A stretch of 64,000 nucleotides of DNA, taken from Candidatus Latescibacterota bacterium (GTDB taxonomy: Bacteria; Latescibacterota; UBA2968). Below, piece by piece: positions 38,488 to 64,000 of this stretch. Under the pieces are notes generated by a model. It worked only from the letters and a program-made list of their open reading frames with translations, had not been told where the DNA came from and made no database searches. Location: the NCBI GenBank assembly GCA_965222605.1, contig OZ244960.1, positions 3,936,001 through 4,000,000 on the forward strand. Reading direction: 5' to 3'. Every line of letters begins with the position of its first letter. Position 1 is the stretch's first letter. A program made the position numbers and the translations under genes.

Positions 38488-41400
38488 ATGTTTAAAATCG
38501 GCACAATTTTCGACAAAAGATATCAAATCCAGGCGCACCTGGGAACCGGGGGCATGGGCGAAGTTTATCGGGTTTTGGACCTGGATCAAGACCGGGAGTG
38601 CGCGCTCAAAATTTTGAATACAATGGTGGATCAGAAGGCGGCACATCGCCGTTTTCACAGAGAATTTCAAGTGTTGAACAGACTTCAGCACCCACGCCTG
38701 GTACGCACACACACCTGGGGCTTTGCCGAAGAGCGTCCCTATTTTACAATGGAATATTTGCCCGGAAAGACATTGGAAAAAATAATTGCCGATCAAGCAC
38801 TATTAGCGCGATTCCGGGCGTCTCACTTTTTTGCTCTGGTACAACAACTTGCCGAGGGATTGGCTTATATCCACGCGCAGGGTGCGGTGCATCGCGATCT
38901 CAAGCCATCCAATATTATGGTTTTGGAAACAGAAGAGGGGATTGAGACCACAATTCTGGATCTGGGGTTGGCGAAATTCAGACATCTGCACAGCGTTTCT
39001 ATTACGCAGACGGGCGCAACGATTGGTACGGCAGAATATATGTCGCCAGAGCAAGGTAAGGGATTCTGGGTGGATCATCGATCAGATTTGTACTCATTGG
39101 GCGTGATTTTATACGAGGTCCTCACGGACGCCCCGCCCTTTTCTGGACAAAATCCCATATCTGTTATTCTGAAGCATATTCGAGAGATACCGCCCTCAAT
39201 GAGCGAAATCAATATCGCTGTTTCTGAAGAGATACAACAAGTTGTGTTAAAGTTGCTGGCAAAGGGAGCTGTTGACCGTTATCAGTCTGCAGAGGAAGTG
39301 GTGCGTGCCTTACCATCGGGGTTTGTGCCATCGGATGATGAGCAGCGCGATGTGCCCGTGAAAGTTATGCGGCCGCAATTTGTCGGGCGCGAATCCGAAA
39401 TGAAGACCTTGCACGCGATGTTGCATGATGTACAGGCTGGCGAGCAGCGCGTGGTTCTAATCTCCGGTGAGGCAGGGGTGGGCAAAACGAGATTGGTCGA
39501 AGAACTATTGGGCGATGCGCTGATCCATGATTTTCTGTGTTTGAAAGGGTCTGGCCAGGAAGAGGGGGGACAAATATACGGTGCATTGATCGATGCTTTT
39601 CAGCGGGTAAAGACGACGGATCTGGTGGGGAGAGTGCCCGATCCAGTAGAGACGGACAAGTTTTCTGTTATGGAACGTTGGTTGCAGTTATTAAAGAGTC
39701 TGCGGCAGAAACAGCCCATTGTGTTGTGTTTGGAAGATATTCAGTGGCTTGATGAATTGACATTGGAATTTTTGCAGTATGTGTTGCGCGATCCAGAACC
39801 CTGTCCATTTTTGTTATGCCTGACTTGCCGATGGTCTAATCTGGAGCCGTTTTCAGAGGAAGTTGAAAATTTTATACACAGTAATGAATTTGCTGAGGCG
39901 ACTCATATTCAGTTGGAAAATCTACCTCAAGAGGAAGTGGGGTATTTAGCGGCGTCGATGTTGGGGGAGCGGTCCATACCATCCGATGCATTGCAAGCCC
40001 TGTTCAGAGAAACGGGTGGGCAGCCCCTGTTTGTCGTGGAGGCTATGAGGACGCTGGTGAATGTCGATGTGGTTCGGCAGAATGTGTCTGACGATTGGCA
40101 GTGGGGAGAATTTCCCGAAACATTATTATCTGATGATATTTCAGAAGTTTTGTACAGGCGCATAACTGCCCTGCCTGCGGTGCAACAGCGGGTGCTGGAA
40201 TATGCCTGTGTTTTTCTGGGTGATTTTTCTTTTGAATTATTGGCTGAGATTTGGCGCGGTGATGAGTTGGAGCTATTGGATGTACTGGACGACCTCGTTG
40301 CAGAAGGGCTGTTAACGACTTATGGTGATGAAAAAGAACGGTATCGTTTTTCACAGAGTTTGTGTCGGCGGGCAATTTACGATCGCATACAAAATGTGCG
40401 GCGACGTCTGTTACATCGAGAAATTGGCAATGCTCTGGAAGATACGGAAGATGCCGAAGAACTGACGGAAGAATTGGCGGATCATTTTGCGGCGGCAGAA
40501 GAACAAGATAAGGCTGTAAAATATATGCGCCTATCAGGCAAAAAAGCATTGGCGATACAAGCGTATCGCCAGGGATTGAGACGGTTTGAGGCTGTGCGAG
40601 ACTGGACAACGAATGATGCTTTTGAATCGCAAGCGGACGCTATCGACTTTTTGTGCGATTATGCAGATGTGCTACGCAATTGCGATCAGCCCAATAGAGC
40701 ACTAAAACTTTTAGAGGAGGCAAAGGCTTTATTGCCCGATGATCGAAATGATTTGAAGGCGCGTATTTTGAATCGTGAAGGTAGTATTCACAGCGTACTT
40801 CAACATGGGGCAATTGCAGAAGAATATATGCTGGAGGCATTGCGACTTTATCGGGAACTGGATGATCTCGACGGAGAAATTCAGGCTTTGGGAGGTTTGG
40901 CTTATTTGTGTGATGTATCTGGACGGCACGAAGAAGCAATTGCGTATATGCGTCGGGAAATAGAGAAATATGCTACGCTCGGGGATGCTCAAAACAAGGC
41001 TGTTTTACAAAGGAGGGAAGGTCTGTTTGCATTGGTGGGATTTCGATTTAAGACAGCCAAATCACACCTGGAGGCGACTGTAAAAACCGCTCAGCAACTC
41101 GGACTTGAATACCACCAAATATGGGCACTCAATTTACTTGTAAGAGTTTATTTTTATCTGGGTGATCTCAACCGTGCGGAAGCCGTTTGCTATGAAGTCA
41201 TTGGTGAGTGGCAGAAGCGAGGAGTGATACACCTGGAAGCGGTAAATTTCCTCTACCTTGGGGAATTGGCATTGGAACGCGGCGATTTTGCTGAGGCATT
41301 GGAATATGCCGAGATCTCAGCAGAGCGATTTTTGGAAACATCGCGAAAAGATTATGTCTATCGCGCTTATGCGATTTCAGCAACGGCTGCTGCGAGAATG

Positions 41401-43410
41401 GGAGATGACGAAACAGCACTTGAATGGGCAGAAAAAGCCAGTGAAGGTTTACAGCAAACATCGGGTATGTACACGGGCATATTGCCCCTGGTGTATTGTG
41501 GTATTGGCGTTGCTCTGGCTAAGGCAGGGCGGATTGCGGAGGCTGAACAGGCTTTTGAGCAGGCTATTGAATGCCGAAGAGAATCCAAAGGCGATCACTG
41601 GGCGCGTGCATCGCTGATGGCAGGAGAGTTTTATCTCGAGCGCGATGATATGACAAAAGCGCAAGAGTATCTCGAAGCGGCAAAACAGGCGTTTGAAGAA
41701 ATGGAAATGTCCTACTTTCTGAGGAGAACACAGATGTTATTCAGTCAATTATCTCACGACGAAGATGGTCGCGGCAGGGATGCCGTTCCAATGTTCCAAT
41801 CAGGTGAATCTTCTCGCGGTGAGGACTTGCCTGCTATCGTGCAAGCAGGTGCCGCATCTATTTCTGAGATTTCAGTCGATACGTTGTCCGTTGATCGCCT
41901 GCGCTTGCTTTACGAGGTGAGCCGAGAATTGACTACAGAGCGCGATCTCAAGGTGCTATTGGATCGAGTTTTGGGTAATTTGTTGACTGTCTATCCAGCA
42001 GCAGAGCGGGTGCTTGTTGCAATCAAAAATGAGGCTTCGCAAGGCTTTGTAGTTGATGCGATACGTCACCACAATGTAGAAGCAGATGATTTAGAAGAAT
42101 TGAGTGGGGGTATTATTCGTCGGGTTATTGAGACAAATGAACCTGTTTTGAGCATGGATGCCCAGACAGACGACAGGCTCAATTGGTACCAAAGTGTGAT
42201 CGACTACCACATTCGGTCTGTATTGTGTGTGTCCTTATTTCATGTTGAGGAAGGTGTTATCGGTGCATTGTATGTGGATCATCGCGGCATGGACAACGCA
42301 TTTTCTGATGAAGATCAGACGTTTTTACAGGCATTTGCGAATCTGGTGAGTGTGGCACTGGTCAATGCGAGGATGCACGAACAATTGGAAGAGAAAGCAC
42401 AATATTTGCAGCAAGAGGTCGAAAGACGGTACCAGCTTGGCGACCTGTTTGGACAAAGTGATGCAATGCAGATGGTTTACCAGTTTATCGAACGCGCTGC
42501 AAAGAGTGATATCCCCGTGCTTGTACAGGGCGAAACAGGTACGGGCAAAGAATTGGCTGCGCGTGCCATACACTACAATAGCATACGCAAAGACCAGCGA
42601 TTTTTGTCAGAAAATTGTGCTGCACTGTCACCTGAGTTGTTGCAGAGTGAGTTGTTTGGGCACAAAAAAGGCGCGTTTACTGGGGCGAATGAAGATCATA
42701 AGGGGATTTTTGAGGTTGCCAATGGGGGTACGGTTTTTTTAGATGAAATAGGTGATGCCCCGCCGCAGTTGCAAAGGAGTTTGTTGCGGGTGTTGCAAGA
42801 AGGTGAAGTACGGCGTGTGGGAGAAACTGTAGATCGTGCAGTAGATGTGCGCATTATTGCAGCGACCAATCGAGACTTAAAAAAAGAAGTTGAAAACGGT
42901 TCTTTCCGTGAAGATTTGTATTACCGGTTGCATGTGATTCAGATCGATATGCCGCCTTTGCGAGAACACCTTGAAGATGTGCCATTATTGGCAGAACATT
43001 TGCTCATTCGGGCAAAAGAAGAGTCAAACAAGTCGGTTGGAGGGCTGACAGTGGGTGCAATCAGGGCGCTTACAAGTTACGACTGGCCTGGCAATGTGCG
43101 CGAGTTGGAGAATGAGATTCGGCGTGCGGTTGCATTGGCAAAAGAAGAGGGAGATATTACGCCCGATTTGTTTTCAGAAGCTGTCGGGTACGCAGTGCCG
43201 GATGCTTCTGTCGAATACCACTTGCCTGCGCAGGCGGATGCCCGCACGCAAGCAGGAGGGCGTTTACAAGATCGTATGCAGGAGTATGAGAGACGGTTGA
43301 TTCGAGACGCACTTGAGAGATACAAGGGCAATATTACGCATACGGCTAAAGAACTGGGGGTGGCACGCATTAGCTTGTATAGAAAGATCAATCGTTTGGG
43401 GTTGAGGTAG
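38488..43410 (+). CDS. Ser/Thr kinase - AAA (STAND-like) - TPR - GAF - sigma54 activator - Fis HTH multidomain regulator
   Basis: GTGGMGEV/ALK/HRDLKPSN/DLG/MSPEQ; GEAGVGKT; TPRs; GAF (RSVLCV.L..IGALYVD); GETGTGKE, GAFTGA, FLDEIG, WPGNVREL; GNITHTAKELGVARISLYRK. Confidence 0.93.
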   Translation: MFKIGTIFDKRYQIQAHLGTGGMGEVYRVLDLDQDRECALKILNTMVDQKAAHRRFHREFQVLNRLQHPRLVRTHTWGFAEERPYFTMEYLPGKTLEKIIADQALLARFRASHFFALVQQLAEGLAYIHAQGAVHRDLKPSNIMVLETEEGIETTILDLGLAKFRHLHSVSITQTGATIGTAEYMSPEQGKGFWVDHRSDLYSLGVILYEVLTDAPPFSGQNPISVILKHIREIPPSMSEINIAVSEEIQQVVLKLLAKGAVDRYQSAEEVVRALPSGFVPSDDEQRDVPVKVMRPQFVGRESEMKTLHAMLHDVQAGEQRVVLISGEAGVGKTRLVEELLGDALIHDFLCLKGSGQEEGGQIYGALIDAFQRVKTTDLVGRVPDPVETDKFSVMERWLQLLKSLRQKQPIVLCLEDIQWLDELTLEFLQYVLRDPEPCPFLLCLTCRWSNLEPFSEEVENFIHSNEFAEATHIQLENLPQEEVGYLAASMLGERSIPSDALQALFRETGGQPLFVVEAMRTLVNVDVVRQNVSDDWQWGEFPETLLSDDISEVLYRRITALPAVQQRVLEYACVFLGDFSFELLAEIWRGDELELLDVLDDLVAEGLLTTYGDEKERYRFSQSLCRRAIYDRIQNVRRRLLHREIGNALEDTEDAEELTEELADHFAAAEEQDKAVKYMRLSGKKALAIQAYRQGLRRFEAVRDWTTNDAFESQADAIDFLCDYADVLRNCDQPNRALKLLEEAKALLPDDRNDLKARILNREGSIHSVLQHGAIAEEYMLEALRLYRELDDLDGEIQALGGLAYLCDVSGRHEEAIAYMRREIEKYATLGDAQNKAVLQRREGLFALVGFRFKTAKSHLEATVKTAQQLGLEYHQIWALNLLVRVYFYLGDLNRAEAVCYEVIGEWQKRGVIHLEAVNFLYLGELALERGDFAEALEYAEISAERFLETSRKDYVYRAYAISATAAARMGDDETALEWAEKASEGLQQTSGMYTGILPLVYCGIGVALAKAGRIAEAEQAFEQAIECRRESKGDHWARASLMAGEFYLERDDMTKAQEYLEAAKQAFEEMEMSYFLRRTQMLFSQLSHDEDGRGRDAVPMFQSGESSRGEDLPAIVQAGAASISEISVDTLSVDRLRLLYEVSRELTTERDLKVLLDRVLGNLLTVYPAAERVLVAIKNEASQGFVVDAIRHHNVEADDLEELSGGIIRRVIETNEPVLSMDAQTDDRLNWYQSVIDYHIRSVLCVSLFHVEEGVIGALYVDHRGMDNAFSDEDQTFLQAFANLVSVALVNARMHEQLEEKAQYLQQEVERRYQLGDLFGQSDAMQMVYQFIERAAKSDIPVLVQGETGTGKELAARAIHYNSIRKDQRFLSENCAALSPELLQSELFGHKKGAFTGANEDHKGIFEVANGGTVFLDEIGDAPPQLQRSLLRVLQEGEVRRVGETVDRAVDVRIIAATNRDLKKEVENGSFREDLYYRLHVIQIDMPPLREHLEDVPLLAEHLLIRAKEESNKSVGGLTVGAIRALTSYDWPGNVRELENEIRRAVALAKEEGDITPDLFSEAVGYAVPDASVEYHLPAQADARTQAGGRLQDRMQEYERRLIRDALERYKGNITHTAKELGVARISLYRKINRLGLR

Positions 43411-43421
43411 ATGTTGGATTG

Positions 43422-43550: not shown

Positions 43551-43657
43551 TTATGTCTGAATGTAATATCTGTAATATACATAGTCCTTAAATTTTATCT
43601 CTTTGTTTTTTAAGCACTTGAGTATCTTCAAGTGTTTTTTTGTGCTGGGACGATTTT

Positions 43658-43673
43658 TGGCACGGATCTTGCA
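43658..43673 (+). promoter_or_regulatory. Sigma54 (-24/-12) promoter
   Basis: TGGCACGGATCTTGCA exactly matches TGGCACG-N4-TTGCW, 55 nt before the precursor ATG. Confidence 0.9.
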
Positions 43674-43728: not shown

Positions 43729-43890
43729 ATGGCGACGCGACGCAAGTTGAATCTGATCAATGGAACGATAGATGCAGAGGGTGGTATTTGTATGTATCGG
43801 GCGACGAACAGTTTTGAAATTGGTTGTGAACCCGGTTGGCCATCTGTTCCTCCCCTTCCCTTTCCCGATGATGATGACGATGATTTTTAG
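43729..43890 (+). CDS. Putative RiPP precursor peptide 1 (53 aa)
   Basis: AGGAGG RBS; MATRRKLNLINGTIDAEGGICMYRATNSFEIGCEPGWPSVPPLPFPDDDDDDF; first gene after the sigma54 promoter, upstream of the rSAM/SPASM gene. Confidence 0.75.
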   Translation: MATRRKLNLINGTIDAEGGICMYRATNSFEIGCEPGWPSVPPLPFPDDDDDDF

Positions 43891-44065: not shown

Positions 44066-44156
44066 ACTCTGCAAAACCTTGTCCCCGGACCACATCACAC
44101 AATTTTTGCGCGTTAATCGCATATCTTTGGGTTGCCAGTACAGGGTTTTGCAGAGT
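44066..44156 (+). promoter_or_regulatory. Long stem-loop between the precursor genes and the maturase
   Basis: ACTCTGCAAAACCTTGT (44066-82) pairs with ACAGGGTTTTGCAGAGT (44140-56), one G.U pair. Confidence 0.6.
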
Positions 44157-44194
44157 TCTTTGTCGTCTTTCGTCTTATTGAGAGGGGACTTACC

Positions 44195-45631
44195 ATGATG
44201 TGTATCCACAAATGCGAAATGCATCTTTTTCAAATAGAAGAGCAAAAACAGCCTATTGTCTATCAGGTTGAGACGGGTCTGTTCTATGAATTGGATACCC
44301 TTTTTCAGGCGATTTTAGCGTGTTGCGAGGGGTTGTCTGTTTCGCAGGTTGTTCAGGTGCTGGCTGATCAATACGAGGCAGAGGAAATTGTCGAGGCTAT
44401 TGAGGAATTGGCTCAGGTGGGTTTGATTTCGGATGGTGCTCTACCTGTGGTAGCCAATGTGCCGACAACAGAAGGGGTGGCAGCCTGTGGGGCATCGCAG
44501 ACAGATCGTTTGCAGGTGTCCTTGCACGTTTCCCATACGTGCAATATTCAGTGTGCTTATTGCTTTGCCCATGGCGGGGATTACGGCGGTAAGGCGATGC
44601 TGATGCAATTAGATGTTGCCGAGCAAGCCATACGCTGGATTGTCGCCGAAGCGCAGGTGTTCGGACGGTGCCAGATTGATTTTTTTGGCGGGGAGCCGCT
44701 TTTGAATTTTCCATTGCTGAGCGAGCTTGTCCCGTTTGCCAGGTCCCTGGGAGCGCGGTTGGGTGTGCAGGTTGGTTTTGGCATTGTGACCAATGGCACG
44801 TTGTTGACCGACGAGATGAAGCAGTTTTTGGTTGATGAAAATTTTCAAATTAAGGTCAGCCTGGATGGTGGGCGTAAAACGCAGGATCGCATTCGCAAGT
44901 TTCACAATGGTTCTGGTACTTATGATGTTGTGGCAAAAAATGTACAGAAACTGACGGATGAGGTACCTGAGCGCGTGTTTTTGCAGGCTGTTATGACAGC
45001 TTATGATATGGATGAGGATCAGATTGCCAATGAGTTGCGTTCCTTGGGTACTGATAACGCGCTTGTTGGTCCGGCGGTTGTTTCACCGGATGCGCCTTAT
45101 GCTATTCGAGAAGAACATATACCCGCGTTGAAACAACAGATTTACAAGCGGAGTAGGCGTGCGCTCAAAGCCATTTTAAGTGGTGAAAAGGGTGAAGATG
45201 AAGAGTTTGATCCGAGGATTCAAAAACTTTTGACGCGCAAAAAATCCTGTCACGGGTGTCTCGGTGGCAAGCAGTATTTGGCGATTGCAGCAGATGGGTC
45301 GATTTATTTTTGCTCGAGTTTAGCCGATGCGCCCGAGTTTAAGATGGGTGATGTGTTTGCGGGTATTGACCGCGAAAAACAGCATCATTTTGATGTGGAG
45401 TTCAATGTGAATAATCGCCCTGAGTGCAAAACGTGCTGGGCACGCAACTTATGTGGTGGCGGATGTCTTTGGGAGGCACGGACAACAACGGATGATCCAA
45501 TGTCTCCGAACCCGGTTTATTGTGAGCAGACGCGCTATCGCTATGAATTGGCGATGGAAATGTGTATGGAAATAGCAGAGACGGATGAGTCTTTGTTGCA
45601 GCGACGTTATGATCTGGAAGTGGCCTCATAA
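44195..45631 (+). CDS. Radical SAM/SPASM peptide maturase with an N-terminal RRE-like domain (ranthipeptide-synthase-like)
   Basis: CNIQCAYC, FFGGEPLLN, VTNGTLL, VSLDG; SPASM CHGC..GSIYFC..CKTCWARNLCGGGC..C; N-terminus ends in a winged-helix-like AIEELAQVGLI. Confidence 0.88.
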   Translation: MMCIHKCEMHLFQIEEQKQPIVYQVETGLFYELDTLFQAILACCEGLSVSQVVQVLADQYEAEEIVEAIEELAQVGLISDGALPVVANVPTTEGVAACGASQTDRLQVSLHVSHTCNIQCAYCFAHGGDYGGKAMLMQLDVAEQAIRWIVAEAQVFGRCQIDFFGGEPLLNFPLLSELVPFARSLGARLGVQVGFGIVTNGTLLTDEMKQFLVDENFQIKVSLDGGRKTQDRIRKFHNGSGTYDVVAKNVQKLTDEVPERVFLQAVMTAYDMDEDQIANELRSLGTDNALVGPAVVSPDAPYAIREEHIPALKQQIYKRSRRALKAILSGEKGEDEEFDPRIQKLLTRKKSCHGCLGGKQYLAIAADGSIYFCSSLADAPEFKMGDVFAGIDREKQHHFDVEFNVNNRPECKTCWARNLCGGGCLWEARTTTDDPMSPNPVYCEQTRYRYELAMEMCMEIAETDESLLQRRYDLEVAS

Positions 45632-45651: not shown

Positions 45652-45885
45652 ATGGCCTGTAGAATTGGCTTGACGATAGATCCCGACAGCCGGAGGCGAT
45701 ATTGGCGATCCAGGTATCGTTCCTTCAGAAACTGGAGGACTGTGGGGCATTATAATTCTAAGAGGCAAGCCCAGCAAGAAGTGACTCGACTCGCTAAAAT
45801 TTGGGGGTGTGAAGCTCCTCCTGATGGCGTAGGACCAGAACAGGCCTCCTGGTATGTGTATGTTTTTGCACATGACGGCTATTAA
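45652..45885 (+). CDS. Small basic protein, minimal GIY-YIG-like motif
   Basis: RIGLT.DP.SRR, AQQE..L, C-terminal YVY; in operon position. Confidence 0.5.
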   Translation: MACRIGLTIDPDSRRRYWRSRYRSFRNWRTVGHYNSKRQAQQEVTRLAKIWGCEAPPDGVGPEQASWYVYVFAHDGY

Positions 45886-49344: not shown

Positions 49345-49426
49345 AAAAGCCGCCGACAGACCCTGGCAAGTCGAGTGTCGGCGGCAGACTGCAGTTCAAA
49401 GCTCAAGCATTTGGGAATGTGAGCTT
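49343..49426 (-). ncRNA. Candidate structured small RNA / modular repeat, copy 1
   Basis: Minus-strand TTGACA (49462-49457)-N18-TATCTT (49438-49433), then hairpin AAGCTCA..TGAGCTT, then GC stem GCCGCCGACA..TGTCGGCGGC with a T-tract; repeated at 56886 and 59897. Confidence 0.55.
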
Positions 49427-49488
49427 GATAGTAAGATATCTTTTGAGGGGCAGGTTGTCAACCATCGTGCAATCGGATATAAAAATTT

Positions 49489-52623: not shown

Positions 52624-52848
52624 ATGAAAACTTTGACCAAACCTGTGAAGTCTCGGCTGTCTTCTCCGCGTATTTATGGATATGAAGATAATGGGGGTAA
52701 ATGGAAAGTCGATGGAACATCAATAGTTGAGTATGGGGATCCGGTTGAGACAACGTGGTACTACACTTACTTGGTGTGCGAGTCTGCGACCCAACCCTTC
52801 TGCACCGTAGGCGATTCAGAGACTAAAGCACGTAAAGTAGATCATTGA
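52624..52848 (+). CDS. Putative precursor peptide 2 (74 aa)
   Basis: Very strong AAAGGAGGTG RBS; basic leader MKTLTKPVK..RIYGY followed by a core with a C-x7-C pair. Confidence 0.7.
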   Translation: MKTLTKPVKSRLSSPRIYGYEDNGGKWKVDGTSIVEYGDPVETTWYYTYLVCESATQPFCTVGDSETKARKVDH

Positions 52849-53090
52849 TGTATAAATTCTGTGTTTGATAAAAAAGCAAAGTGTGCAACCATCTTGGTAG
52901 GCTCAAATTTCGTTCGGTGTTCTCGATAAATAGACCGGGGACACCGATTTGACGCTGTCAAAAATTTCAACGCCCTTTCTCATAATATCCGAGATATGGA
53001 AAAATACTGAATGATTATTTGAGTGGCGACTTTTACCGACTATATCACAGTTTTTATGCATACCCTTCATTAACAGGATATGGATAACCG

Positions 53091-55586: not shown

Positions 55587-55715
55587 TATGAAAATTTGCT
55601 TCTGTTCGGTAAAAAAACAGTGTGCTACCGATCTTAATAGGCCGCAACTTGACTTGGTGTTCTCGGTAAACAGGCCGGGAGTACCGAGCCTATGATAAGG
55701 AAAGGATGATGATTT

Positions 55716-56807
55716 ATGAATCGCAAAAAGTTATTGGTTTCCGTGAGATGGCTGACACTCCTCCTTTTGATCTGTGGAAGTTGCCAAAAAAGTACTGTTG
55801 AAAACCAGCAAGATGGGGTCGCTCTCAAGGTGCAAGCACAAGGTGCCCAACTTTCATTGATTGATGCCATTACCCTTGAACGGTCAGAGGCAAGGCCAGC
55901 TCTCGGACGTGTCCGTTCCATTACTGTTTTGGAGAACTATATCATTATTGTAGATGCCATGAGAGAAAGTGTCGAAGTTTTTGACAAGGAGGGCAGCTAT
56001 AAGTGGTCTATTGGTAGTCGCGGGGATGGAGAAGGTCAGTACAAGAGCCCGAGCGAGCCAACAATTATCCCCAATACCGACCAAATGCTGATCTATGATG
56101 GGGGGCAGGTGCTTATCTTCTCGATTCAAGGAGAATTTTTAGGGCAGGTAAAGCTGCCAGAGAGACGCTTTATTAATCGCATGGCGGTTTCTGATGAGCA
56201 CAATCTCATTCATACTTATCTTGACAAAAACCAAAACGGTATGCTTTGTGTCACCTCCCTTGAAACTGGTGAAGACCTCGCCAAGTTCAAAGTTAGCGAG
56301 TCTCAATACGAACACTTATTTTTTGGTTTGCAGAGTTTCCAAGGGCTTGCTTATGACGAGATACAGAGAATGATATATTTTGCCTTGCCCTGGGAAGAGA
56401 AGGTTATGCGAATTGATTTGGCAACACAGGAATTTTTGACCCCCATAGTCATAAATCATCCCAAATTTGTCAGCCTCAAATTAGATGAAATAGATGATAG
56501 CAAAGATATTAGAGAATTATCCCAACACAGGTTCAGCAGATTGAACAGCATGTATCTCTTGTCTTCGAGCGATATTTTGCTCAATTACCAGTTCTGGGAT
56601 TCGTCAATGAGTACCGCGCTTATACTTTTATCAGGCTTGGATATGCAGCCATCGGCGCAAGAAGTGAAAAATGAATTGGGGTACAATATTTTTACTTGTT
56701 ATGGAAAATCTATATATATGTATTCGTCTTCCACTGATGGCGAAGATACAAATGGGAGAATTCGTGTCTATCGTCTGACGGAACCTCAAGAAGCCCCTAC
56801 CGGATAG
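55716..56807 (+). CDS. 6-bladed beta-propeller (NHL/TolB-like) lipoprotein
   Basis: CGSC lipobox, VFDKEG.Y..SIGSRGDGEGQY..P, IFS..GEFLG. Confidence 0.78.
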   Translation: MNRKKLLVSVRWLTLLLLICGSCQKSTVENQQDGVALKVQAQGAQLSLIDAITLERSEARPALGRVRSITVLENYIIIVDAMRESVEVFDKEGSYKWSIGSRGDGEGQYKSPSEPTIIPNTDQMLIYDGGQVLIFSIQGEFLGQVKLPERRFINRMAVSDEHNLIHTYLDKNQNGMLCVTSLETGEDLAKFKVSESQYEHLFFGLQSFQGLAYDEIQRMIYFALPWEEKVMRIDLATQEFLTPIVINHPKFVSLKLDEIDDSKDIRELSQHRFSRLNSMYLLSSSDILLNYQFWDSSMSTALILLSGLDMQPSAQEVKNELGYNIFTCYGKSIYMYSSSTDGEDTNGRIRVYRLTEPQEAPTG

Positions 56808-56885
56808 TGGTGAGAGTCAGGCCGTGTTCGAGTGTCTCTTTATCACAAAGTTAAAATTGAAGTGGCAAAAGTGTTAATATAAATA

Positions 56886-57041
56886 GCCGCTGATATACCT
56901 TGGCAAGTCGAGTGTCGGCGGTAAGAACAGTGTACAACCGCTGGCTGGCAATCCCTGATAGATTCGGGCGGTGTACAACTGCGCACGCGTAGCACAACGT
57001 CAGTATAGCAGTTCAAAGCTCAAGCATTTGGGAATGTGAGC
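56886..57041. repeat. Modular structured repeat, copy 2 (about 85-nt insert)
   Basis: GCCGCTGATATACCTTGGCAAGTCGAGTGTCGGCGG ... GCAGTTCAAAGCTCAAGCATTTGGGAATGTGAGC. Confidence 0.8.
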
Positions 57042-57133
57042 ATGAGAGAATGGTTTTACTTTTACTGGAGTCCATCGAGTAAGGTGCGTCTTATGCATAC
57101 GCACACTTTAAGTTATTTACATTACGGGTGAAT

Positions 57134-58906
57134 ATGAAAAAAAAAATTAACAAATTCATCTCAGCAACTTTTTATATCTCTAAGAATAGACATGTCTTTT
57201 ATCATTTTTTAAAATTTCTGAAACCTTATTGGGTACAGCAAAGCGTTGTTTTCGTTCTCATGCTCTTGGGGACTGTTAGCTCGCTGGCCTTTCCTTATAT
57301 CATGAAAATTATTATTGATGACGTGTTTCCAAACAAAGACTATGAATTATTTATATTTATTTTGCTTCTGCTCTTGGGCATTACAGTAGGTAATATCATT
57401 ATTGGTTTTTGTTCAAACTATTTATTTTCTTGGATAAACAATCGCATTATGCTGGATATAAGGAGCCATCTTTTTGACCACTTAATCCAGTTGCCATTGA
57501 GCTTTTATGATCGCAATAAATCTGGGGATATTGTTTATAGAATGAGCAACGAAGTGGATAGGATACAGTCGTTTATCACTTCGAGTGCTTTGAATCTTAC
57601 GCATAGCTTGTTGACACTCATAGGGCTTACTGTGGTTCTCTGCTGGTTGAACTGGCAACTCTTCTTGGCTTCTATTATTGTGATACCCTTTCTGGTACTC
57701 AATATTCGCTATTTCCAGCCTAAAATAAGAGATATTACAGAACGAGGACGAAAGAAAGGCTCTGAAGTTATGAGCTATTTGATTGAGCGATTTGAGACTG
57801 TCCAATTGATTCAGGTCTATAATGCCTATAATTATGAAAACAATAGATTGTGGTCGCAGCTAAATGATCTTCTGGATATCAATATGCAAAATGTAACCTA
57901 TTCTGGCGTGATGAGATCGATTTCGAGATTTTTCACATCCCTGACACCTGCGATCATTTTGGGCTGGGGAGGCCACAAAGTCATGTTGGGCGTCATAAGC
58001 TTGGGGGCATTAGTCGCTTTTTTGCAATACCTGTCGCGCCTTTTTGAACCATTTAGAAATCTCAACCATCTTTATGTAGAACTTATCCGTGTATCTGTTT
58101 CAATGAAGCGGGTATTCGAGTTTCTCGAGATTGATATTCAGGAATGGTCCGACTCGTCTGTCACCCGTCCTTTTTCTTTTGAAAAGGAGATAGCGTTTAC
58201 CGACCTCAATTTTGGATATAACGGACAACCCGTTTTGCAGGACTTCAGCTTGAGACTTGAGAAAGGAAAAAAATATGCTCTGGTAGGGTCAAGCGGTTGT
58301 GGCAAGAGTTCATTGGTAAATTTGCTGTGTCGTTTTTATGAATCGAATACAGGTGCGATTACTATTGATCACATACCGATTACCCATATCAAACTGTATG
58401 ATCTGAGAGAGCATATTGGTCTGGTAACTCAGGAAAATCAAGTTTTTCATGATACAATCTGGGACAATATCCGATACAGCAAGCCGAACAGTACGCCTGA
58501 AGAGGTCCATAGAGCGATCAGGATAGCTGGTTTGGATGGATTTATTGAGAAGGCTGAAGATGGTGCGCTTACGCTTGTCGGTGATCGCGGGAACACACTT
58601 TCGGCTGGTCAAAAGCAGCGTATTGCCATTGCGCGTGCAATTTTGAGAGACTCGGATATTTTGATCCTGGATGAAGCTACGTCGGCACTGGATTCTGAAA
58701 GCGAAGGTGAAATTATAGCAAATTTACAGGATCTATATGAAGATAAAACGATGATTGTGATTAGCCACAGACTCAGCACGATCCAGCAGGTAGATGAGAT
58801 TATCTGTTTGGATGAGGGGAGAGTTGTGGAGCAAGGAGCACATGAAGAGTTGTTGGAGAAGAAGGGACATTATTGGCGTCTTTTTCGCAAGCAACTTATC
58901 GCATAG
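57134..58906 (+). CDS. ABC exporter, fused permease/ATPase, no C39 domain
   Basis: 6-TM ABC membrane domain, GSSGCGKS, LSAGQKQR, ILDEATSALD, ISHRLST. Confidence 0.95.
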   Translation: MKKKINKFISATFYISKNRHVFYHFLKFLKPYWVQQSVVFVLMLLGTVSSLAFPYIMKIIIDDVFPNKDYELFIFILLLLLGITVGNIIIGFCSNYLFSWINNRIMLDIRSHLFDHLIQLPLSFYDRNKSGDIVYRMSNEVDRIQSFITSSALNLTHSLLTLIGLTVVLCWLNWQLFLASIIVIPFLVLNIRYFQPKIRDITERGRKKGSEVMSYLIERFETVQLIQVYNAYNYENNRLWSQLNDLLDINMQNVTYSGVMRSISRFFTSLTPAIILGWGGHKVMLGVISLGALVAFLQYLSRLFEPFRNLNHLYVELIRVSVSMKRVFEFLEIDIQEWSDSSVTRPFSFEKEIAFTDLNFGYNGQPVLQDFSLRLEKGKKYALVGSSGCGKSSLVNLLCRFYESNTGAITIDHIPITHIKLYDLREHIGLVTQENQVFHDTIWDNIRYSKPNSTPEEVHRAIRIAGLDGFIEKAEDGALTLVGDRGNTLSAGQKQRIAIARAILRDSDILILDEATSALDSESEGEIIANLQDLYEDKTMIVISHRLSTIQQVDEIICLDEGRVVEQGAHEELLEKKGHYWRLFRKQLIA

Positions 58907-58909: not shown

Positions 58910-59419
58910 ATGGAACTGGTGAGTGTAGAATTTCGCAATCCTGACATAAAATTAGTTCTTCTGCGTGCATTGGTTATTCAAATTTTGGGAATAGGCGCAG
59001 GATTGATTTATACTGTTATTTTTAGTGAACAGCTTTTGTTCGGCGAGGTTGAAACCTTTGAAAAACAAGATGATATAACGTATGTCTCTTTAGAGGCACT
59101 TCAAAATGTAATTCAATCGAAATCAAAAATACTACTCATTGATGGACGATCTGAATCAGCTTATCACGAAGGCCATATTCCAGGGGCTGTGAACGTACCG
59201 TATATTCAGCGTGATTATTTTTTTAAAAAACTTTTGGCTGATATTGCCCGCGAGACACCAATAATTGTCTATTGTTCCGGAAAGAATTGTAATACCAGTG
59301 TCAAATTGGCGAGGTCTCTGTCAGGGGAATTTGGATTTATACATGTTCGAGTTTTTAAGGGAGGATGGGAGGAATGGGTAAAGGGTGAAAATCCGATTCA
59401 AACGAGTTTTGACAGATGA
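58910..59419 (+). CDS. Membrane-anchored rhodanese-like domain protein
   Basis: IDGRS..Y.EGHIPGAVNVP, VYCSG..C, FKGGWEEW. Confidence 0.88.
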   Translation: MELVSVEFRNPDIKLVLLRALVIQILGIGAGLIYTVIFSEQLLFGEVETFEKQDDITYVSLEALQNVIQSKSKILLIDGRSESAYHEGHIPGAVNVPYIQRDYFFKKLLADIARETPIIVYCSGKNCNTSVKLARSLSGEFGFIHVRVFKGGWEEWVKGENPIQTSFDR

Positions 59420-59883
59420 TTATACCTTCTAAATTAGCATGGATAGGAACCGTGATCCGGATATTTCTGGGGGTTATTCTCGGATGGGCTGGGGTTGTAA
59501 AAATCCGTAATCCTGAAGCATTTATTAAAATTGTGAGAGCCTACAATTTGCTACCTGAGGAATTGGGCGTGCTATGGGGAATTTTCTTGCCCTGGATTGA
59601 GCTTGTGACAGGTTTATTTTTAATTTCAGGTTTGTGGCACAAGAGTGCTGTGCTCAGTAGCTCTGGTCTTTTTTTAGCATTTGCAGCAGCAGTCGGCATT
59701 AATATTCTCCGCGGTGCAGATATCGCCTGTGGTTGTTTTGGGTTCAATGACACCAATTTGTATGTTGTGTTGTTCCAGGCCCTGGTCTTCTTGCTTTGCT
59801 GTTATTTTTTGTTTTTTCTGAAATCTACACCTTATTCTATGGACCATTGTCTTTTTACTTCTCAAAGAGGTGGACTTTCGTAA
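59416..59883 (+). CDS. MauE/DoxX family redox-associated membrane protein
   Basis: RIFLG....AG..KI, LPWIEL..G, RG.DIACGCFG. Confidence 0.88.
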   Translation: MIIPSKLAWIGTVIRIFLGVILGWAGVVKIRNPEAFIKIVRAYNLLPEELGVLWGIFLPWIELVTGLFLISGLWHKSAVLSSSGLFLAFAAAVGINILRGADIACGCFGFNDTNLYVVLFQALVFLLCCYFLFFLKSTPYSMDHCLFTSQRGGLS

Positions 59884-59896
59884 AGTATTCCCATGC

Positions 59897-60002
59897 AAAA
59901 TCCGCTGACAGGCCCTGGCGAGTCGAGTGTTGGCGGCAGACTGCTATCCCCGCATGAGGTAAGCAGGGGCAGTTCAAAGTGCAAGCATTTGGGAATGTGA
60001 GC
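59897..60002. repeat. Modular structured repeat, copy 3 (about 25-nt hairpin insert)
   Basis: CCGCTGACAGGCCCTGGCGAGTCGAGTGTTGGCGG ... GCAGTTCAAAGTGCAAGCATTTGGGAATGTGAGC. Confidence 0.8.
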
Positions 60003-60115
60003 GTGACCAATTCAAAATATCTAATTATGGTAGTAGAAGGATAGTTGTGTGCCTCGAAGAACTAAGATCAGCATAAAATTTTAATGTATGGCCAATATCA
60101 ACTCATTTAAGAGGT

Positions 60116-61393
60116 ATGGTTTTGAGAACAGTTTTGATGATCACACAAAAATTTCCTCCTTTTAATGGTGTTGGGATTCTGCGGGTTACCAAATTCGTGA
60201 AGTATATTCAGGAGTTTGGATGGCGACCTGTTGTTCTGACTTGCAAACGAAAAGAAAATCATTTAGACGCTGTGGATGAAAAACTGTTAGATGGTGTTCC
60301 GAAAAATTTAAGCATTCATCGGGTAAATGCCCCTTCCCTGTACGACGTTTACAGACTAATAGGCGGACGGGCAAAACAAGGCTCTTTTTCTTTGTCTAAA
60401 AATTCTCTGGCTACTTTAATCCGATCCTTATTTGTACCTGACCAATATGTCGCCTGGTATTTTACGGGTGTACGTAAGGCGAAAGAGATTTTCCAGGTGG
60501 AGAATATAGACGCGATCTATTCTACATCTCCTCGTGAAACATCACATCTGATTGGACGAACGCTCCATCTAAAATATAAGTGTCCTTGGATAGCCGATTT
60601 TAGGGATCCCTGGATCGAGAAACAACACCGTCCAAAACGTATCCAGCCTCTCGAACAGTTCGAGAAGTACTTAGAAAAAATTGTGCTTCGCGATGCAGAT
60701 TGCATTCTTGCTGCCTGGCCCGGTATTGTCCGAAGTTTTGAGCCTGCTGTAGAGGAGAAATCGCAAGTTTTGACTAATGGATTTGATGAAGAAGACTTCA
60801 GAGGTCTAAAGCCTCATGTGTTCCCAAAATTCACTTTTTTGTATGCCGGATCACTTTTTAAAGAATTGTCACCCCTACCAATGTTCGAAGCATTGGATAT
60901 GCTGCTGCGAATACGTCCAAAACTACGACAAAGAATTCAATTGGTCCTCTTGGGAAGGCAAGATGCATTTATTCGAGATACGATAACAAAATACGAGTTG
61001 GAATCTTGTGTACATATCATCCCACAAATACCGCACAGAGAATGTTTGCAGTACATATTGGGAGCTGATGTATTGACTTTTTCTGTACCAGATAAACAGT
61101 GGATCCCCAGCAAAATTTTTGAGTACTTAAGAGCCAGCAGACCCATACTGGCAATAGCAGACCAGGATTCAGACGCTGTACAGATTATCGCGCGTGTAAA
61201 CCAGGGTTTATGTTTCGCAAGCCGAGATCCTGAGCATATAGCACGTTATATGTCAAATTTAGTGCGAAATCGCGAGGTTTCGGATTGTGGGATTCAAAAC
61301 AATAGGCAACTCTGGGAGTTTGAACGAAGACAGTTAGCAAAACAGCTTGCTCATACCCTTGATACGCTCGTCAATCAGGTTTATAGGAAATGA
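60116..61393 (+). CDS. Glycosyltransferase family 4
   Basis: FPP..G.G..R..KFVKY, STSP, PWIADFRDPW, TNGFD, YAGS, PSKIFEYL. Confidence 0.9.
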   Translation: MVLRTVLMITQKFPPFNGVGILRVTKFVKYIQEFGWRPVVLTCKRKENHLDAVDEKLLDGVPKNLSIHRVNAPSLYDVYRLIGGRAKQGSFSLSKNSLATLIRSLFVPDQYVAWYFTGVRKAKEIFQVENIDAIYSTSPRETSHLIGRTLHLKYKCPWIADFRDPWIEKQHRPKRIQPLEQFEKYLEKIVLRDADCILAAWPGIVRSFEPAVEEKSQVLTNGFDEEDFRGLKPHVFPKFTFLYAGSLFKELSPLPMFEALDMLLRIRPKLRQRIQLVLLGRQDAFIRDTITKYELESCVHIIPQIPHRECLQYILGADVLTFSVPDKQWIPSKIFEYLRASRPILAIADQDSDAVQIIARVNQGLCFASRDPEHIARYMSNLVRNREVSDCGIQNNRQLWEFERRQLAKQLAHTLDTLVNQVYRK

Positions 61394-62073
61394 ATCGTAT
61401 AAATAAAATGTTAAGAGTGTTGTGTGCCCTGAGTTTTCTCATAGTACTATTACCGCTCGTGATCTTGGGCATTGTATTGATCTGGATAGAGACGCGGGAT
61501 AGATGCTTGTTCAAGCAAATCCGAGTGGGAAAAAACTTAAGACCCTTTACCATTTATAAACTTAAAACCATGATTGATCGTAAAAAAGCAGATCGAAATG
61601 ATCTCTTCGTGGATAATGAAAAATATATTACCAAAAGTGGACGTTTGCTCAGGATGTCAAAGATTGACGAAATACCGCAACTTTGGAATATCATCAAGGG
61701 GGATATGGATTTTGTGGGTCCGAGGCCGATAAGAGAACCACTACATAATTTTTATATGAAAAATATCCCAAACTTTGAACTCCGATACCAAACTTTACCC
61801 GGCCTTACGGGAATCTCTCAAATTGTAGATCCTGAGAATACAGATCGCAGTCTCGGCCTATCTTGTGACTGTTACTACATCAATAACAAATCTGTAAAAT
61901 TAGATGTTCAGATCATTGTATCGACGATCGTATATTTGATGTACAGTCTATCACGAGAAATTTACAACTGGACAACTGCAAGATGGCTCAGGCGTATCAA
62001 TGAGGATAATATATCCAACATTCAAGCTGATAATTTGCAGTATATGAGTTTGTCAAAATGGAAACGTCAATGA
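61390..62073 (+). CDS. Bacterial sugar transferase (phosphoglycosyl transferase)
   Basis: FKQ.RVG, YKLKTM, SKIDEIPQLWNI.KGDM.FVGPRP, PGLTG.SQ. Confidence 0.92.
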   Translation: MNRINKMLRVLCALSFLIVLLPLVILGIVLIWIETRDRCLFKQIRVGKNLRPFTIYKLKTMIDRKKADRNDLFVDNEKYITKSGRLLRMSKIDEIPQLWNIIKGDMDFVGPRPIREPLHNFYMKNIPNFELRYQTLPGLTGISQIVDPENTDRSLGLSCDCYYINNKSVKLDVQIIVSTIVYLMYSLSREIYNWTTARWLRRINEDNISNIQADNLQYMSLSKWKRQ

Positions 62074-62074: not shown

Positions 62075-63187
62075 ATGAAAACAGTGATCAGTAATATTGA
62101 ATACTATCAGCCTGCACAAGGCAAACCGAAGCATATGTTTTGCAGTAGTACTTTCTTAAACATTTTGGCCTATCACAATCCATTTTTTAAAAAGCCTATC
62201 CTGTATGATCTGCTGAGAGTTGGATGGACGTTTTGGTATTCCCCAAAAAAGAGAAGACTGAGTTCAATGTATGTAAAGAATGGCTTTTTATTTAATTTGA
62301 ATTCTCTGTTCTCTGTAAACTCGGAGTCCATATTCTGCTCAGACTTAAGTCACTTTAGAGAGTGTTTGAGAGAACGGCTTATTGGAAAACGGCCATTATA
62401 TGTTGATCTATCCGGGGCACCCGTTTTGGTAGGCCAGGAGCTTAAGTTCACAGATCTACACCTGAAACATTTCACATATGTTGTCTTTGGTTTCGACAGC
62501 AAAAATGATACTGTCTTACTTTTGACAAACGGAGCTTCAATAGTCGGTTGGGCATCAATTTCTGAGGTTGCGAGTAGGCTTAAGAGAAATGAAATTGTAG
62601 ATTTTATGAATCCTTTAGACTTACAGATGCCTGATGAAGAAAAACTTGCGGACTTTTTTTTGCGAAAAATAAGAAGCAACTTCAAAACCTGTGCTACATT
62701 AGGCACTTTGAGGAGGATAAATCACTATGTATGGGGAAATATTACGAGGAAGTATATCCCTATAGATTTGCCTCCAGTAAGGACTCTGAGTGGCATAGGG
62801 GGTATAGAAAAATTTTCGAAAGATCTCGTACACTTATATGGATTAGAAAGGAATGAGATAAACGATTTTTCAAAGCATACATGCCGGAAGATAATAGGAT
62901 TCAGAGATGAACGAGCGATATTTATGAGGTCATTATTGGGATTAGCTCGTTTTAACAAGAAAGATCATATCATAAAAGAAGTTGAATGTCTATCGCGAGA
63001 TTTAGAAATAGCTTGGGTATCCTTAGCTAAATCTTTTGCCAGAGTTTATATGTCAGAGAGGAAGGATTCTGTAGATCGAATACAGGAGGAATTGCTTCAA
63101 ATAAAGAGCCGAGAGAAGGCCCTCCTACTACTGATGCAGGATTTTTTAAAAAAAGGGGGATTAGATGGTATGAATCTTTACGAATGA
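62075..63187 (+). CDS. BtrH-like (papain-fold) protein, possible ACP-dependent acyltransferase
   Basis: N-terminal Cys (HMFC), RPLYVDL, H..VVFGFD strand, helical C-terminus with GIGGIEKF. Confidence 0.5.
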   Translation: MKTVISNIEYYQPAQGKPKHMFCSSTFLNILAYHNPFFKKPILYDLLRVGWTFWYSPKKRRLSSMYVKNGFLFNLNSLFSVNSESIFCSDLSHFRECLRERLIGKRPLYVDLSGAPVLVGQELKFTDLHLKHFTYVVFGFDSKNDTVLLLTNGASIVGWASISEVASRLKRNEIVDFMNPLDLQMPDEEKLADFFLRKIRSNFKTCATLGTLRRINHYVWGNITRKYIPIDLPPVRTLSGIGGIEKFSKDLVHLYGLERNEINDFSKHTCRKIIGFRDERAIFMRSLLGLARFNKKDHIIKEVECLSRDLEIAWVSLAKSFARVYMSERKDSVDRIQEELLQIKSREKALLLLMQDFLKKGGLDGMNLYE

Positions 63188-63250
63188 ATCATTAGAGTTT
63201 GGAGTTGTCCAATCAGTCTCTATTATTTTAACTAAAAATAGGATTTGACC

Positions 63251-64000
63251 ATGAAAAAGAAAGTAAAAATAGCTTATATCTTTACACGGTTTCCCTGTTT
63301 GACTGAATTGTTTGCTTTACGTGAGGTAGAAGAATTGAGAAGATTGGGAATTGATGTTCAGCCTTATTCTTTAAAGAGGGTGCGGGTAGAAGATATGCAA
63401 GATCCTCTCATGAAATTTTGGTTTGATAAAACCATATATATTCCTTCTTCCTCCAGTTTTCAATGTCTTATATCGCTGTCTAAGAGCGGTATTAAGCACT
63501 TTAGAATTTTCTGGGGAGGTCTCATAGTTAAATGTATCTCTGGAAATATACGAAACTTAAGATATTTGTTTTCTTCGCTTGCAGTATTTTCTCAGGCTAC
63601 GCATATAACACAAGAGTTAGTAAAAACAAACGTTATGTGGGTCCATGCACATTTTGCGACCAACGCTACAACTGTTGCCTGGATAATCAAGCACCTATCC
63701 GGTATCCCTTATAGCTTTACTCCTCATGCCTATGATATATTCAAACGAGAATTCCAAACGGGATTTCTCAGGACAAAGATTCAAGATGCCCATTTTGTTG
63801 TTGCGATCTCTCAATTTAACAAATTTTTCCTTCAAAATTTTAGCGGACAAAAGTCTGAAAATGGCCAGTATCCCGTGATTCATTATGGTATTGGAGCTGA
63901 TTATCTACACAGACAATTAAAGAAGGATTGTAAAAATCAGTTCCCTATTATTCTTTCTATAGCCCGATTAGTAGAAAAGAAAGGTCATGAATATTTAATT
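63251..64000 (+). CDS. Glycosyltransferase family 4 (WcaL-like), truncated by the window end
   Basis: Hand translation: MKKKVKIAYIFTRFP.LTE.F..REV, VHAHFAT, PYSFTPHAYDIF, VIHYGI, SIARLVEKKGHEYLI; open to 64000. Confidence 0.9.
   Translation, partial: MKKKVKIAYIFTRFPCLTELFALREVEELRRLGIDVQPYSLKRVRVEDMQDPLMKFWFDKTIYIPSSSSFQCLISLSKSGIKHFRIFWGGLIVKCISGNIRNLRYLFSSLAVFSQATHITQELVKTNVMWVHAHFATNATTVAWIIKHLSGIPYSFTPHAYDIFKREFQTGFLRTKIQDAHFVVAISQFNKFFLQNFSGQKSENGQYPVIHYGIGADYLHRQLKKDCKNQFPIILSIARLVEKKGHEYLI

Follow-up and report, generated by a model that had tools for sequence, protein, structure and literature searches.

The closest described relatives of the gene island considered here, from a Candidatus Latescibacterota genome, are the CLI_3235-type systems for cysteine-rich peptides, of which the accessible part of one paper treats the SacP23 locus of Paenibacillus polymyxa (PMC10731318). 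These systems comprise a TIGR04065 precursor, the TIGR04068 radical S-adenosylmethionine (rSAM) enzyme CcpM, a TIGR04066 protein, a TIGR04069 protein related to acyl carrier protein (ACP), and a subtilase. Also comparable are the ranthipeptide pathways (SCIFF/CteB and PapB/freyrasin) and the QhpD/QhpE/QhpF route to the gamma subunit of quinohemoprotein amine dehydrogenase (QHNDH). QhpD and PapB link Cys to Asp or Glu, and QhpE is the leader-removing protease; the QHNDH system further includes the ATP-binding cassette (ABC) exporter QhpF, the propeller QhpB, and an AraC regulator. Carrier-protein-dependent, amide-forming enzymes with a papain fold are represented by BtrH (butirosin), CcbD/LmbD (lincosamide), CtaG (closthioamide), and AziU3/U2 (azinomycin). 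In the accessible parts of their sources, BtrH is an ACP:aminoglycoside acyltransferase (PMC10318531), and CcbD uses a Cys-His-Glu triad to couple an amino acid bound to a carrier with an amino sugar (PMC12945683).

The island lies in the window, that is, the whole 64,000-nucleotide stretch that was analysed (assembly GCA_965222605.1, contig OZ244960.1, positions 3,936,001 to 4,000,000). Twenty genes, all on the + strand, run from 38401 to the window end at 64000, and three to four more follow beyond it: the rest of a GT4 glycosyltransferase (432 amino acids [aa] when whole), a formyltransferase, a DUF218 protein, and a TPR/GWxTD protein, after which come unrelated metabolism genes. Together they make a same-strand block of about 30 kb in an uncultured bacterium that is probably sponge-associated. 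Four of its open reading frames (ORFs) have no Pfam or NCBIfam match. On balance we take the locus to be a composite yet functionally connected island of the RiPP type (peptides made by the ribosome and modified after translation), which makes, modifies, and exports two kinds of ribosomal peptide. It is a relative of the CLI_3235/TIGR04066 cassettes, themselves uncharacterised, and its route of modification may be new; crosslinking, acylation, and glycosylation of any peptide here are predicted.

A sequence-only reading of this stretch had set it beside CLI_3235-type loci and proposed a cluster with two unrelated precursors, an rSAM maturase, sigma54 control, an ACP, an S8 protease fusion, a BtrH-like protein, and shared intergenic repeats that tie the middle and distal parts together. 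Kinship to the CLI_3235-type loci is real at the level of architecture, both precursors represent conserved families with conserved leaders, the maturase is present, and the ACP, fusion, and BtrH-like protein do belong together, co-occurring in other loci. The repeats are likewise real, and the three copies in the window are the only ones in the genome. Sigma54 control stands for the preA-rSAM unit only; the other operons carry a different conserved element.

A precursor that bears Cys, an enzyme of the rSAM/SPASM kind, a P-loop protein like TIGR04066, a small carrier protein, a subtilase, and an ABC exporter are common to the island and, as far as the accessible source describes them, the CLI_3235-type systems. 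However, all four family models are missed: TIGR04066 reaches 122.3 bits against a cut-off of 200 (profile positions 2-271 of 361), TIGR04068 169.1 against 500, and neither TIGR04069 nor TIGR04065 matches the ACP, preA, or preB at E 0.01. The island rSAM is closer to SCIFF, QhpD, and PapB. Of the two, only the island has two precursor families, a unit under sigma54, a set of thiol-redox proteins for the periplasm, cassettes of propeller and permease, genes for sugars, and the repeat R. The ranthipeptide and Qhp systems resemble it in the clade of the rSAM/SPASM enzyme, which in the island has a candidate RiPP recognition element at its N-terminus, in a precursor that contains acidic residues as well as Cys, and in the presence of an ABC exporter and a subtilisin-like protease for leaders (a predicted role in the island). 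Yet the scores fall under the equivalog cut-offs, preA combines one conserved Cys with a poly-Asp tail, thioether chemistry in the island is a prediction, and the island protease forms one protein with a P-loop domain and has an ACP as partner. The BtrH-like protein is only 9-11% identical in sequence to BtrH, CcbD/LmbD, CtaG, and AziU3/U2. Moreover, these known members serve small-molecule pathways with adenylation or ATP-grasp loaders, whereas the island encodes ribosomal peptides, and the S8-fused DUF1611 domain is its only candidate loader.

Clusters of the antiSMASH type 'ranthipeptide' are listed for sponge Latescibacterota metagenome-assembled genomes in the accessible part of one source (PMC12993501), so part of the locus falls in a known category. 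The 'srp' RiPPs of sponges, considered as possible relatives, proved to be unrelated YcaO/halogenase systems. A literature search, whose coverage excluded most subscription journals, found nothing on the function of DUF1611 or on the combination of S8-DUF1611 fusion, ACP, and BtrH-like protein.

The catalytic residues of both domains of the fusion are conserved. Across 33 sequences, His75 and Ser219 of the protease are invariant, Asp40 and Asn125 are kept in at least 90%, and the P-loop motif GT..GK.T is conserved; the C-terminal half also matches PDB entry 2g0t (E 0.0021). In an exhaustive search of 1.84 billion representatives, the P-loop domain matched 411 clusters at E 1e-30. Among the best 150 relatives, 137 have a length of 470 aa or more and match in their C-terminal part, which identifies them as fused proteins. 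The neighbouring carrier scores down to 5e-8 against NCBIfam ACP models, under their cut-offs, and its Ser45 is invariant in 14 of 14 aligned homologues. Profile hidden Markov models (HMMs) were compared with 40 S8-fusion loci: the ACP profile matches 32, and the BtrH-like profile 19 (21 with the continuations L074 and L078), five of them from Firmicutes (L011, L014, L015, L017, and L018).

For the BtrH-like protein, sequence methods are weaker than the structural comparison. It has no Pfam BtrH_N match and reaches 18.7 bits for DUF4872 against a cut-off of 28; its homologue in locus L054 passes both cut-offs (47.6 bits for BtrH_N, 37.5 for DUF4872). A phmmer search of the PDB gave no match, and a word-indexed search retrieved only 13 close orthologues (86-95% identity) without a Pfam label. 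In the ESM Atlas, the protein groups with BtrH_N/DUF4872 clusters (score 0.97), and it has the two-domain fold of that group, papain-like plus helical. Within a family of 16 sequences, His132, Gly139, and Asp141 are invariant (16/16) and Cys23 is present in 9; Cys23 is kept in the window group and L054 and is absent from a paralogous BtrH-like group.

These genes sit in a recurrent block. With the S8 fusion as probe and one genome per species, 19 loci were collected, and those about 90% identical to the window conserve three segments: ACP, S8 fusion, and CxxC protein; small ORF, propeller, and permease; and ABC exporter, rhodanese, and MauE protein. The propeller and permease are the most diverged members; identity is 85-91% for the S8 fusion, CxxC protein, and ABC exporter. 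By hydropathy, the CxxC protein, rhodanese, and propeller are placed at or beyond the membrane, and the S8 fusion, ACP, and BtrH-like protein in the cytoplasm. Five relatives (L001, L003, L004, L006, and L008) have a response-regulator/AraC gene 5' of the module, which the window lacks.

Several variations on this module were seen in passing. The same genome contains a paralogous, minus-strand module (L022, G000:C1:2326001-2346000) that begins with response regulator/AraC, HlyD, and ABC genes, continues with four small zinc-ribbon membrane ORFs and one 149-aa ORF, and ends with an S8 fusion (39% identity), an ACP, a BtrH_N-like protein, a TPR plus C39-like protein, and a leucine-rich repeat protein. 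Eukaryote-like leucine-rich repeats of this sort are inserted in or beside the S8 modules of L003 (19845-21365), L022 itself (3495-4808), and L023 (5912-7483). At L065 12390-14474 (family f4), two Rce1/CPBP-type membrane proteases and a helix-turn-helix (HTH) protein lie between an HlyD-ABC pair and the S8 fusion, a set that looks like one for bacteriocin immunity. In L004, an IS4/5-type transposase (16425-17225) separates the permease and propeller genes of the orthologous module.

The second precursor, preB, follows the fusion closely. Its family, found by clustering of small intergenic ORFs and a motif scan, has 10 members in the window and seven related loci. Nine leader positions are invariant (M1, K2, L4, K6, I17, Y18, G19, Y20, and E21). 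The core is variable (32-50% identity) except for two invariant Cys residues, seven to eight residues apart. The preB profile matches 8 of 31 family genomes, and seven of these are exactly the genomes with an orthologous S8 fusion (7/7); in all seven, preB lies 1-7.5 kb 3' of that fusion. The eighth match is weaker (E 1.2e-11; G088:C1:3227794-3227970) and far from the S8 fusions of G088. Locus L007 carries two tandem cassettes, each with R, preB, propeller, and permease.

The first precursor, preA, belongs to unit A, a self-contained sigma54-dependent operon: activator, promoter, preA, rSAM/SPASM enzyme, and usually a methyltransferase-like gene. By NCBIfam the regulator is a NifA/NorR-type activator, and its N-terminus resembles the TOMM system kinase fusion TIGR03903; the ATG at 38488, taken as its start in the sequence-only reading, may be the true one. 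The promoter is the sole exact consensus match in the window (looser sigma54 matches are not enriched, with 34 found against 38 expected). The pattern nGGCAC-N5-TTGCn recurs at the same position in 14 of 15 same-genus rSAM loci (L024-L038) and also at L007, L021, L056, and L073; L054 has a one-mismatch version, and 0 of 15 more distant rSAM loci have the pattern. Neither sigma70-like promoters (40 found, 41.2 expected) nor terminator-like sites (12 found, 16.5 expected) are enriched in the corresponding scans.

Homologues of preA (n=5) each lie directly 5' of an rSAM gene. They share a leader MxTRRKLxLINGT..EGG, one Cys in SFE[IV]GC, and a VPPLPFP-DDDD tail; C33 is conserved and C21 is not, and the Pro-rich, poly-Asp tail is conserved. 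The maturase, whose true start is probably near residue 20, carries the cluster motif CX3CX2C as CNIQCAYC, along with C-terminal Cys clusters (CHGC.../CKTCWARNLCGGGC in translation). It passes the Pfam Radical_SAM cut-off (56.3 bits against 29.5) and misses those for SPASM (18.8 against 21.5) and PqqD (20.5 against 23.4). The best NCBIfam scores are all under their cut-offs: SCIFF TIGR03974, 260.9 against 425; QhpD TIGR03906, 257.2 against 453; nif11-type, 247.8; and PapB NF047865, 221 against 340. Alignment to the SCIFF and QhpD models is full-length. By these sequence affinities the enzyme belongs to the thioether (ranthipeptide: SCIFF/QhpD/PapB) clade.

Of the two genes that follow, orf77 is kept in L007 and L056, absent in L073, and polymorphic for presence or absence (45631-45902): in DNA contigs of X1 and X3, and in RNA contigs of X22 and X23, the 3' end of the rSAM gene is directly continuous with orf297, with joints in these relatives' contigs running from 45623-45631 to 45890-45903. 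The orf297 product is probably, on weak evidence, a class I S-adenosylmethionine-dependent methyltransferase resembling Methyltransf_24. It has no Pfam or NCBIfam match; 25 of 30 ESM Atlas matches are to Methyltransf_24, a phmmer search of the PDB found an O-methyltransferase (E 0.0045), and its AlphaFold 2 model has a pLDDT (predicted local distance difference test) of 32. The gene follows the rSAM gene in three genomes, including those of L056 and L073.

The same genome also has a second activator-preA-rSAM unit (L021, G000:C1:1579003-1584484), whose genes are 78, 82, and 90% identical, respectively, to those of the window; the 78%-identical regulator paralogue stands at its head and reads as two ORFs (476 and 1165 aa). 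On its 3' side are a 305-aa ORF without a match, a truncated fragment of a sigma54 activator, and a UvrD helicase.

The operons beyond unit A are marked by R, an element of about 90 nucleotides (nt) that consists of a 10-13-bp hairpin and a downstream box. The three copies of the 6.34-Mb genome all lie in the cluster, and none is in unit A. In loci L001-L008, R stands at cassette junctions with 90-100% identity, above that of the surrounding coding DNA. Restriction to the cluster and conservation at the cassette junctions of relatives mark R as a putative cluster-specific regulatory element joining the middle and distal parts of the island, not unit A. In an alignment of 25 of 26 copies (the last is identical to one of them), 93.2% of hairpin cells are paired and 22 are unpaired. 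Twenty-seven changes are one-sided and keep the pair, five are double and fall at two pairs, and covariation is modestly above that of shuffles (34/500). The pairing, together with this only modest covariation, suggests a role for R at the RNA level. The D2 box shows no consistent pairing, and Rfam gave no match in 43000-64000 at E 0.1. Separately, about 50 nt of the piece inserted in the second copy (56930-57007) recur at genome positions 312621, 3808549, and 5625287.

Is this one system, or several? The sequence-only reading had named a chance mosaic of a RiPP pair and a polysaccharide locus as the danger to its proposal. In the rival weighed here, an independent sigma54 ranthipeptide operon, an independent bacteriocin-like peptide module, and a surface-glycan locus would simply adjoin, with no common substrates. 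A good deal weighs on that side and against a connected island. Among 168 genomes of the phylum, 30 have the rSAM and 86 the S8 fusion, with different distributions: G087 and G050 have the rSAM and no S8 fusion, G082, G085, G088, and G090 have S8 fusions and no such rSAM, and each unit occurs without the other in closed genomes. In family f4, the S8 fusion is found in 48 of 76 genomes and the rSAM in 1. Among 31 rSAM copies (15 genomes, each in at most five contigs), 25 lie away from an S8 fusion; conversely, four of the seven genomes with the orthologous S8 module have no rSAM near it, and the second rSAM unit of the same genome is solitary, without S8, ACP, or BtrH genes. The junction in the window looks like a deletion derivative of the G080 arrangement, with the response-regulator/AraC gene lost. 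Moreover, the sigma54 promoter is confined to unit A, from which R is absent.

Weaknesses in the family assignments count against the connected island as well. Every family-specific cut-off is missed (SCIFF, QhpD, PapB, CcpM, QhpE, TIGR04066, BtrH_N, and DUF4872). When the profile of the BtrH-like proteins grouped with that of the window was set against the profile of their paralogues (hhalign), the match was weak (probability 2.3%, E 0.02), and the preB HMM misses the preB-like ORF of L054 at E 1e-3, so that the likeness there is at motif level only. Finally, no aminotransferase for an amino sugar was seen among the cluster genes, including those downstream.

Mere juxtaposition nevertheless seems rather unlikely. 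Six of the 31 rSAM copies have an S8 fusion within 15 kb, at 3-13 kb, against about 0.4 expected at random (our own estimate, which assumes genomes of 6 Mb with two to four S8 copies and a span of 30 kb). They represent three architectures (G000/G086/G080; G081; G052/G053), with three gene orders in two genera. L054, from another genus, has the components interleaved, all on a single strand: activator, an ORF like preA, rSAM, DUF5128 propeller, and an ORF like preB (MNLLRKP..IYAYE), followed by CxxC protein, ABC, rhodanese, S8 fusion (103.7 bits for TIGR04066), ACP, Kelch propeller, BtrH_N/DUF4872 protein, and HlyD. L055 shares this arrangement, so the rSAM, S8 fusion, ACP, and BtrH-like protein do have homologues that stand together in another genus. 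S8 fusions and sugar genes also occur together elsewhere (L002, L005, L006, L007, L056, and L078), BtrH-like genes recur beside the S8 fusion and ACP across phyla, and copies of R stand before the ACP and ABC operons and also before the sugar operon, to which the BtrH-like gene belongs. We read the units as modules that work together where both are present and are also able to work alone. RNA contigs of one study (X22 and X23, sponge metatranscriptome runs in which DNA carry-over is possible) match, at 88% or more, parts of the rSAM, orf297, DUF354, dehydrogenase, ACP/S8, CxxC, permease, and ABC/rhodanese genes. None covers 43401-44067 (preA) or 10 to 16 of 30 bins, and the contigs come from relatives, so they say nothing on expression or transcript structure here.

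The sugar genes invite a different account, in which the ACP, P-loop domain, BtrH-like protein, glycosyltransferases, dehydrogenase, and formyltransferase would make a lipid-linked glycan or a glycolipid with N-acyl or N-formyl groups, which the MsbA-like ABC protein flips, the peptides sharing only regulation and export. The accessible parts of two sources agree with it: every solved relative with the BtrH fold acylates an amine of a small molecule, in two cases an amino sugar (PMC10318531; PMC12945683). The locus has the initiating transferase and glycosyltransferases of a Wzx/Wzy-type polysaccharide locus (Bac_transf, GT1, GT4), and the formyltransferase beyond the window resembles the ArnA N-domain and Fmt. 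No Wzx, Wzy, Wzc, or Wza is among the Pfam matches of the 20 window genes and 12 downstream genes, which leaves the ABC protein as the only flippase candidate. A glycosyltransferase adjoins the BtrH-like gene in the window, L005, L078, L074 (a 27% paralogue with a GT4), and L056 (a GT2); the L006 locus ends at its BtrH-like gene, with the next gene outside view. Even so, we consider this account unlikely. The covalent fusion of protease and P-loop domain in those 137 of the 150 best relatives ties the carrier chemistry to a peptidase; L054, L022, and L065 have the S8 fusion, ACP, and BtrH-like protein without any sugar gene; and preB co-occurs perfectly with the orthologous fusion. A Qhp/Mau-like system, in which the crosslinked peptide would be a subunit of a periplasmic enzyme and assemble with the beta-propeller as in quinohemoprotein amine dehydrogenase, seems very improbable indeed. 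True, QhpD and QhpE (144.2 bits) are among the best NCBIfam matches of the rSAM and S8 domain; the cluster has an ABC exporter, a propeller, MauE, and a CxxC protein like MauD; and relatives have AraC-type regulators. But the QhpD score falls short of its cut-off and that for QhpE misses its own of 165, the cluster genes encode no cytochrome c/haem c subunit or flavin (FAD) monooxygenase domain, preA lacks a conserved Trp, and the hypervariable preB core makes a poor enzyme subunit.

For a connected island, a working scheme can be proposed. In preA, the rSAM would bond the sole conserved Cys with a residue in the acidic tail. The cytoplasmic S8 domain would cut off the leaders, that of preB after IYGY/E, and the P-loop domain would load the ACP in an ATP-dependent step. 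The BtrH-like enzyme, with its Cys-His-Asp set, could then transfer the ACP-bound acyl group to an amine; the acceptor would most likely be an amino sugar made by the adjacent glycosyltransferase and formyltransferase genes, or else a peptide amine. The ABC exporter would carry the peptides out, after which the membrane CxxC protein, MauE, and rhodanese might close the C-x7-8-C pair of preB. The fast-diverging permease and propeller may, as a pair, be the cognate immunity proteins or receptors of the hypervariable preB core. A bolder version joins these steps: the protease would free a peptide end, the fused P-loop domain would activate a carboxylate and park it on the ACP as a thioester, and the amide synthase would couple it with an amino sugar or glycan from the neighbouring glycosyltransferases, so that an acyl-peptide or peptide-glycan conjugate results. 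The preB cores, each with its own propeller and permease and flanked by R, would then be swappable toxin/immunity or recognition cassettes. We regard this bolder version as decidedly unlikely in full.

Table 1. Features of the island and their coordinates in the window.
Feature	Position	Strand	Details
Regulator	38401..43410	+	Ser/Thr kinase - STAND AAA_16 - TPR - GAF - Sigma54_activat AAA+ - HTH_8, 1669 aa (Pfam)
Terminator-like hairpin after regulator	43612..43637	+	11-pair stem, then T run
Sigma54 promoter	43658..43673	+	TGGCACGGATCTTGCA; 71 nt 5' of preA
preA, 53-aa precursor	43729..43890	+	MATRRKLNLINGT...EGG leader; SFEIGC; VPPLPFP; DDDDDDF tail
Radical SAM/SPASM maturase	44132..45631	+	Weak PqqD-like N-terminus (Pfam, NCBIfam)
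orf77, small basic protein, optional	45652..45885	+	
orf297, class I methyltransferase candidate	45903..46796	+	Methyltransf_24-like
DUF354 protein	46832..47833	+	GT-B-like (Pfam); 96-97% identical in L006, L007
Nucleoside-diphosphate-sugar 6-dehydrogenase	47974..49344	+	Pfam; TIGR03026 307.7 bits, over 189.8 cut-off
R copy 1	49340..49431	+	Hairpin GCCGCCGACA..TGTCGGCGGC plus downstream box; 5' of ACP gene
Acyl carrier protein	49489..49782	+	LDS motif, Ser45; Pfam PP-binding E 0.002
S8-DUF1611 fusion	49757..51724	+	Cytoplasmic S8 serine protease fused to DUF1611/TIGR04066-like P-loop domain (Pfam)
Membrane-anchored thioredoxin-fold protein	51756..52478	+	AhpC/TSA, CQPC motif, TlpA/ResA/MauD-like; N-terminal transmembrane segment
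preB (orf74), 74-aa precursor	52624..52848	+	Leader MKTLTKP..IYGYE; hypervariable core, C-x7-8-C
Repeat D3a	52891..52947	+	5' of FtsX gene; partial matches in L004-L008
Duplicated FtsX/MacB-type permease	53091..55586	+	ADOP-like; no adjacent ATPase; 67-80% identical among orthologous loci
Repeat D3b	55631..55687	+	5' of propeller gene
DUF5128 six-bladed beta-propeller	55716..56807	+	N-terminal signal/lipoprotein-like segment; 63-76% identical among orthologous loci
R copy 2	56877..57048	+	Split by inserted piece; 5' of ABC gene
ABC exporter	57128..58906	+	Half-transporter with fused transmembrane and nucleotide-binding domains (MsbA-like), without C39 domain
Membrane-anchored rhodanese	58910..59419	+	
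MauE/DoxX membrane protein	59416..59883	+	CGC motif
R copy 3	59892..60009	+	5' of glycosyltransferase operon (GT1)
GT-B glycosyltransferase	60116..61393	+	Glycos_transf_1, GT1 (Pfam)
Small polyprenyl-phosphate sugar-phosphate transferase	61390..62073	+	Bac_transf 160.5 bits
BtrH/CcbD/CtaG-like candidate	62075..63187	+	Carrier-protein-dependent amide synthase candidate; Cys23, His132, Asp141
GT4 glycosyltransferase	63245..64000	+	Runs off window; 432 aa complete in L020

The 38 kb of the window 5' of 38401 hold genes unrelated to the cluster, among them a TRAP transporter, an enolase, and a restriction-modification island. The latter is part of a defence-type island (4019-17477) in which the type I genes HsdM, HsdS, and HsdR are interrupted by a putative AbiC, and which also has an HTH/M78 (IrrE-like) pair and an AAA_21 ATPase. 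A eukaryote-like ankyrin repeat protein is encoded at 28829-30550.

The S8-DUF1611 fusion and its carrier protein form a compact family, long flagged in family libraries without an assigned function. The island offers leads to it: a third partner, the BtrH-like protein, with the fold of a carrier-dependent amide synthase; a matching family of precursors in which the leader is fixed and the core hypervariable and of the disulfide type; and recurrent glycosyltransferase neighbours. If the proposed chemistry were true, it would constitute a new class of post-translational modification that links RiPP and carrier-protein logic, and it would explain the CLI_3235-type clusters of Firmicutes as well. 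The cassette structure, for its part, suggests rapid diversification of secreted peptides in sponge symbionts.

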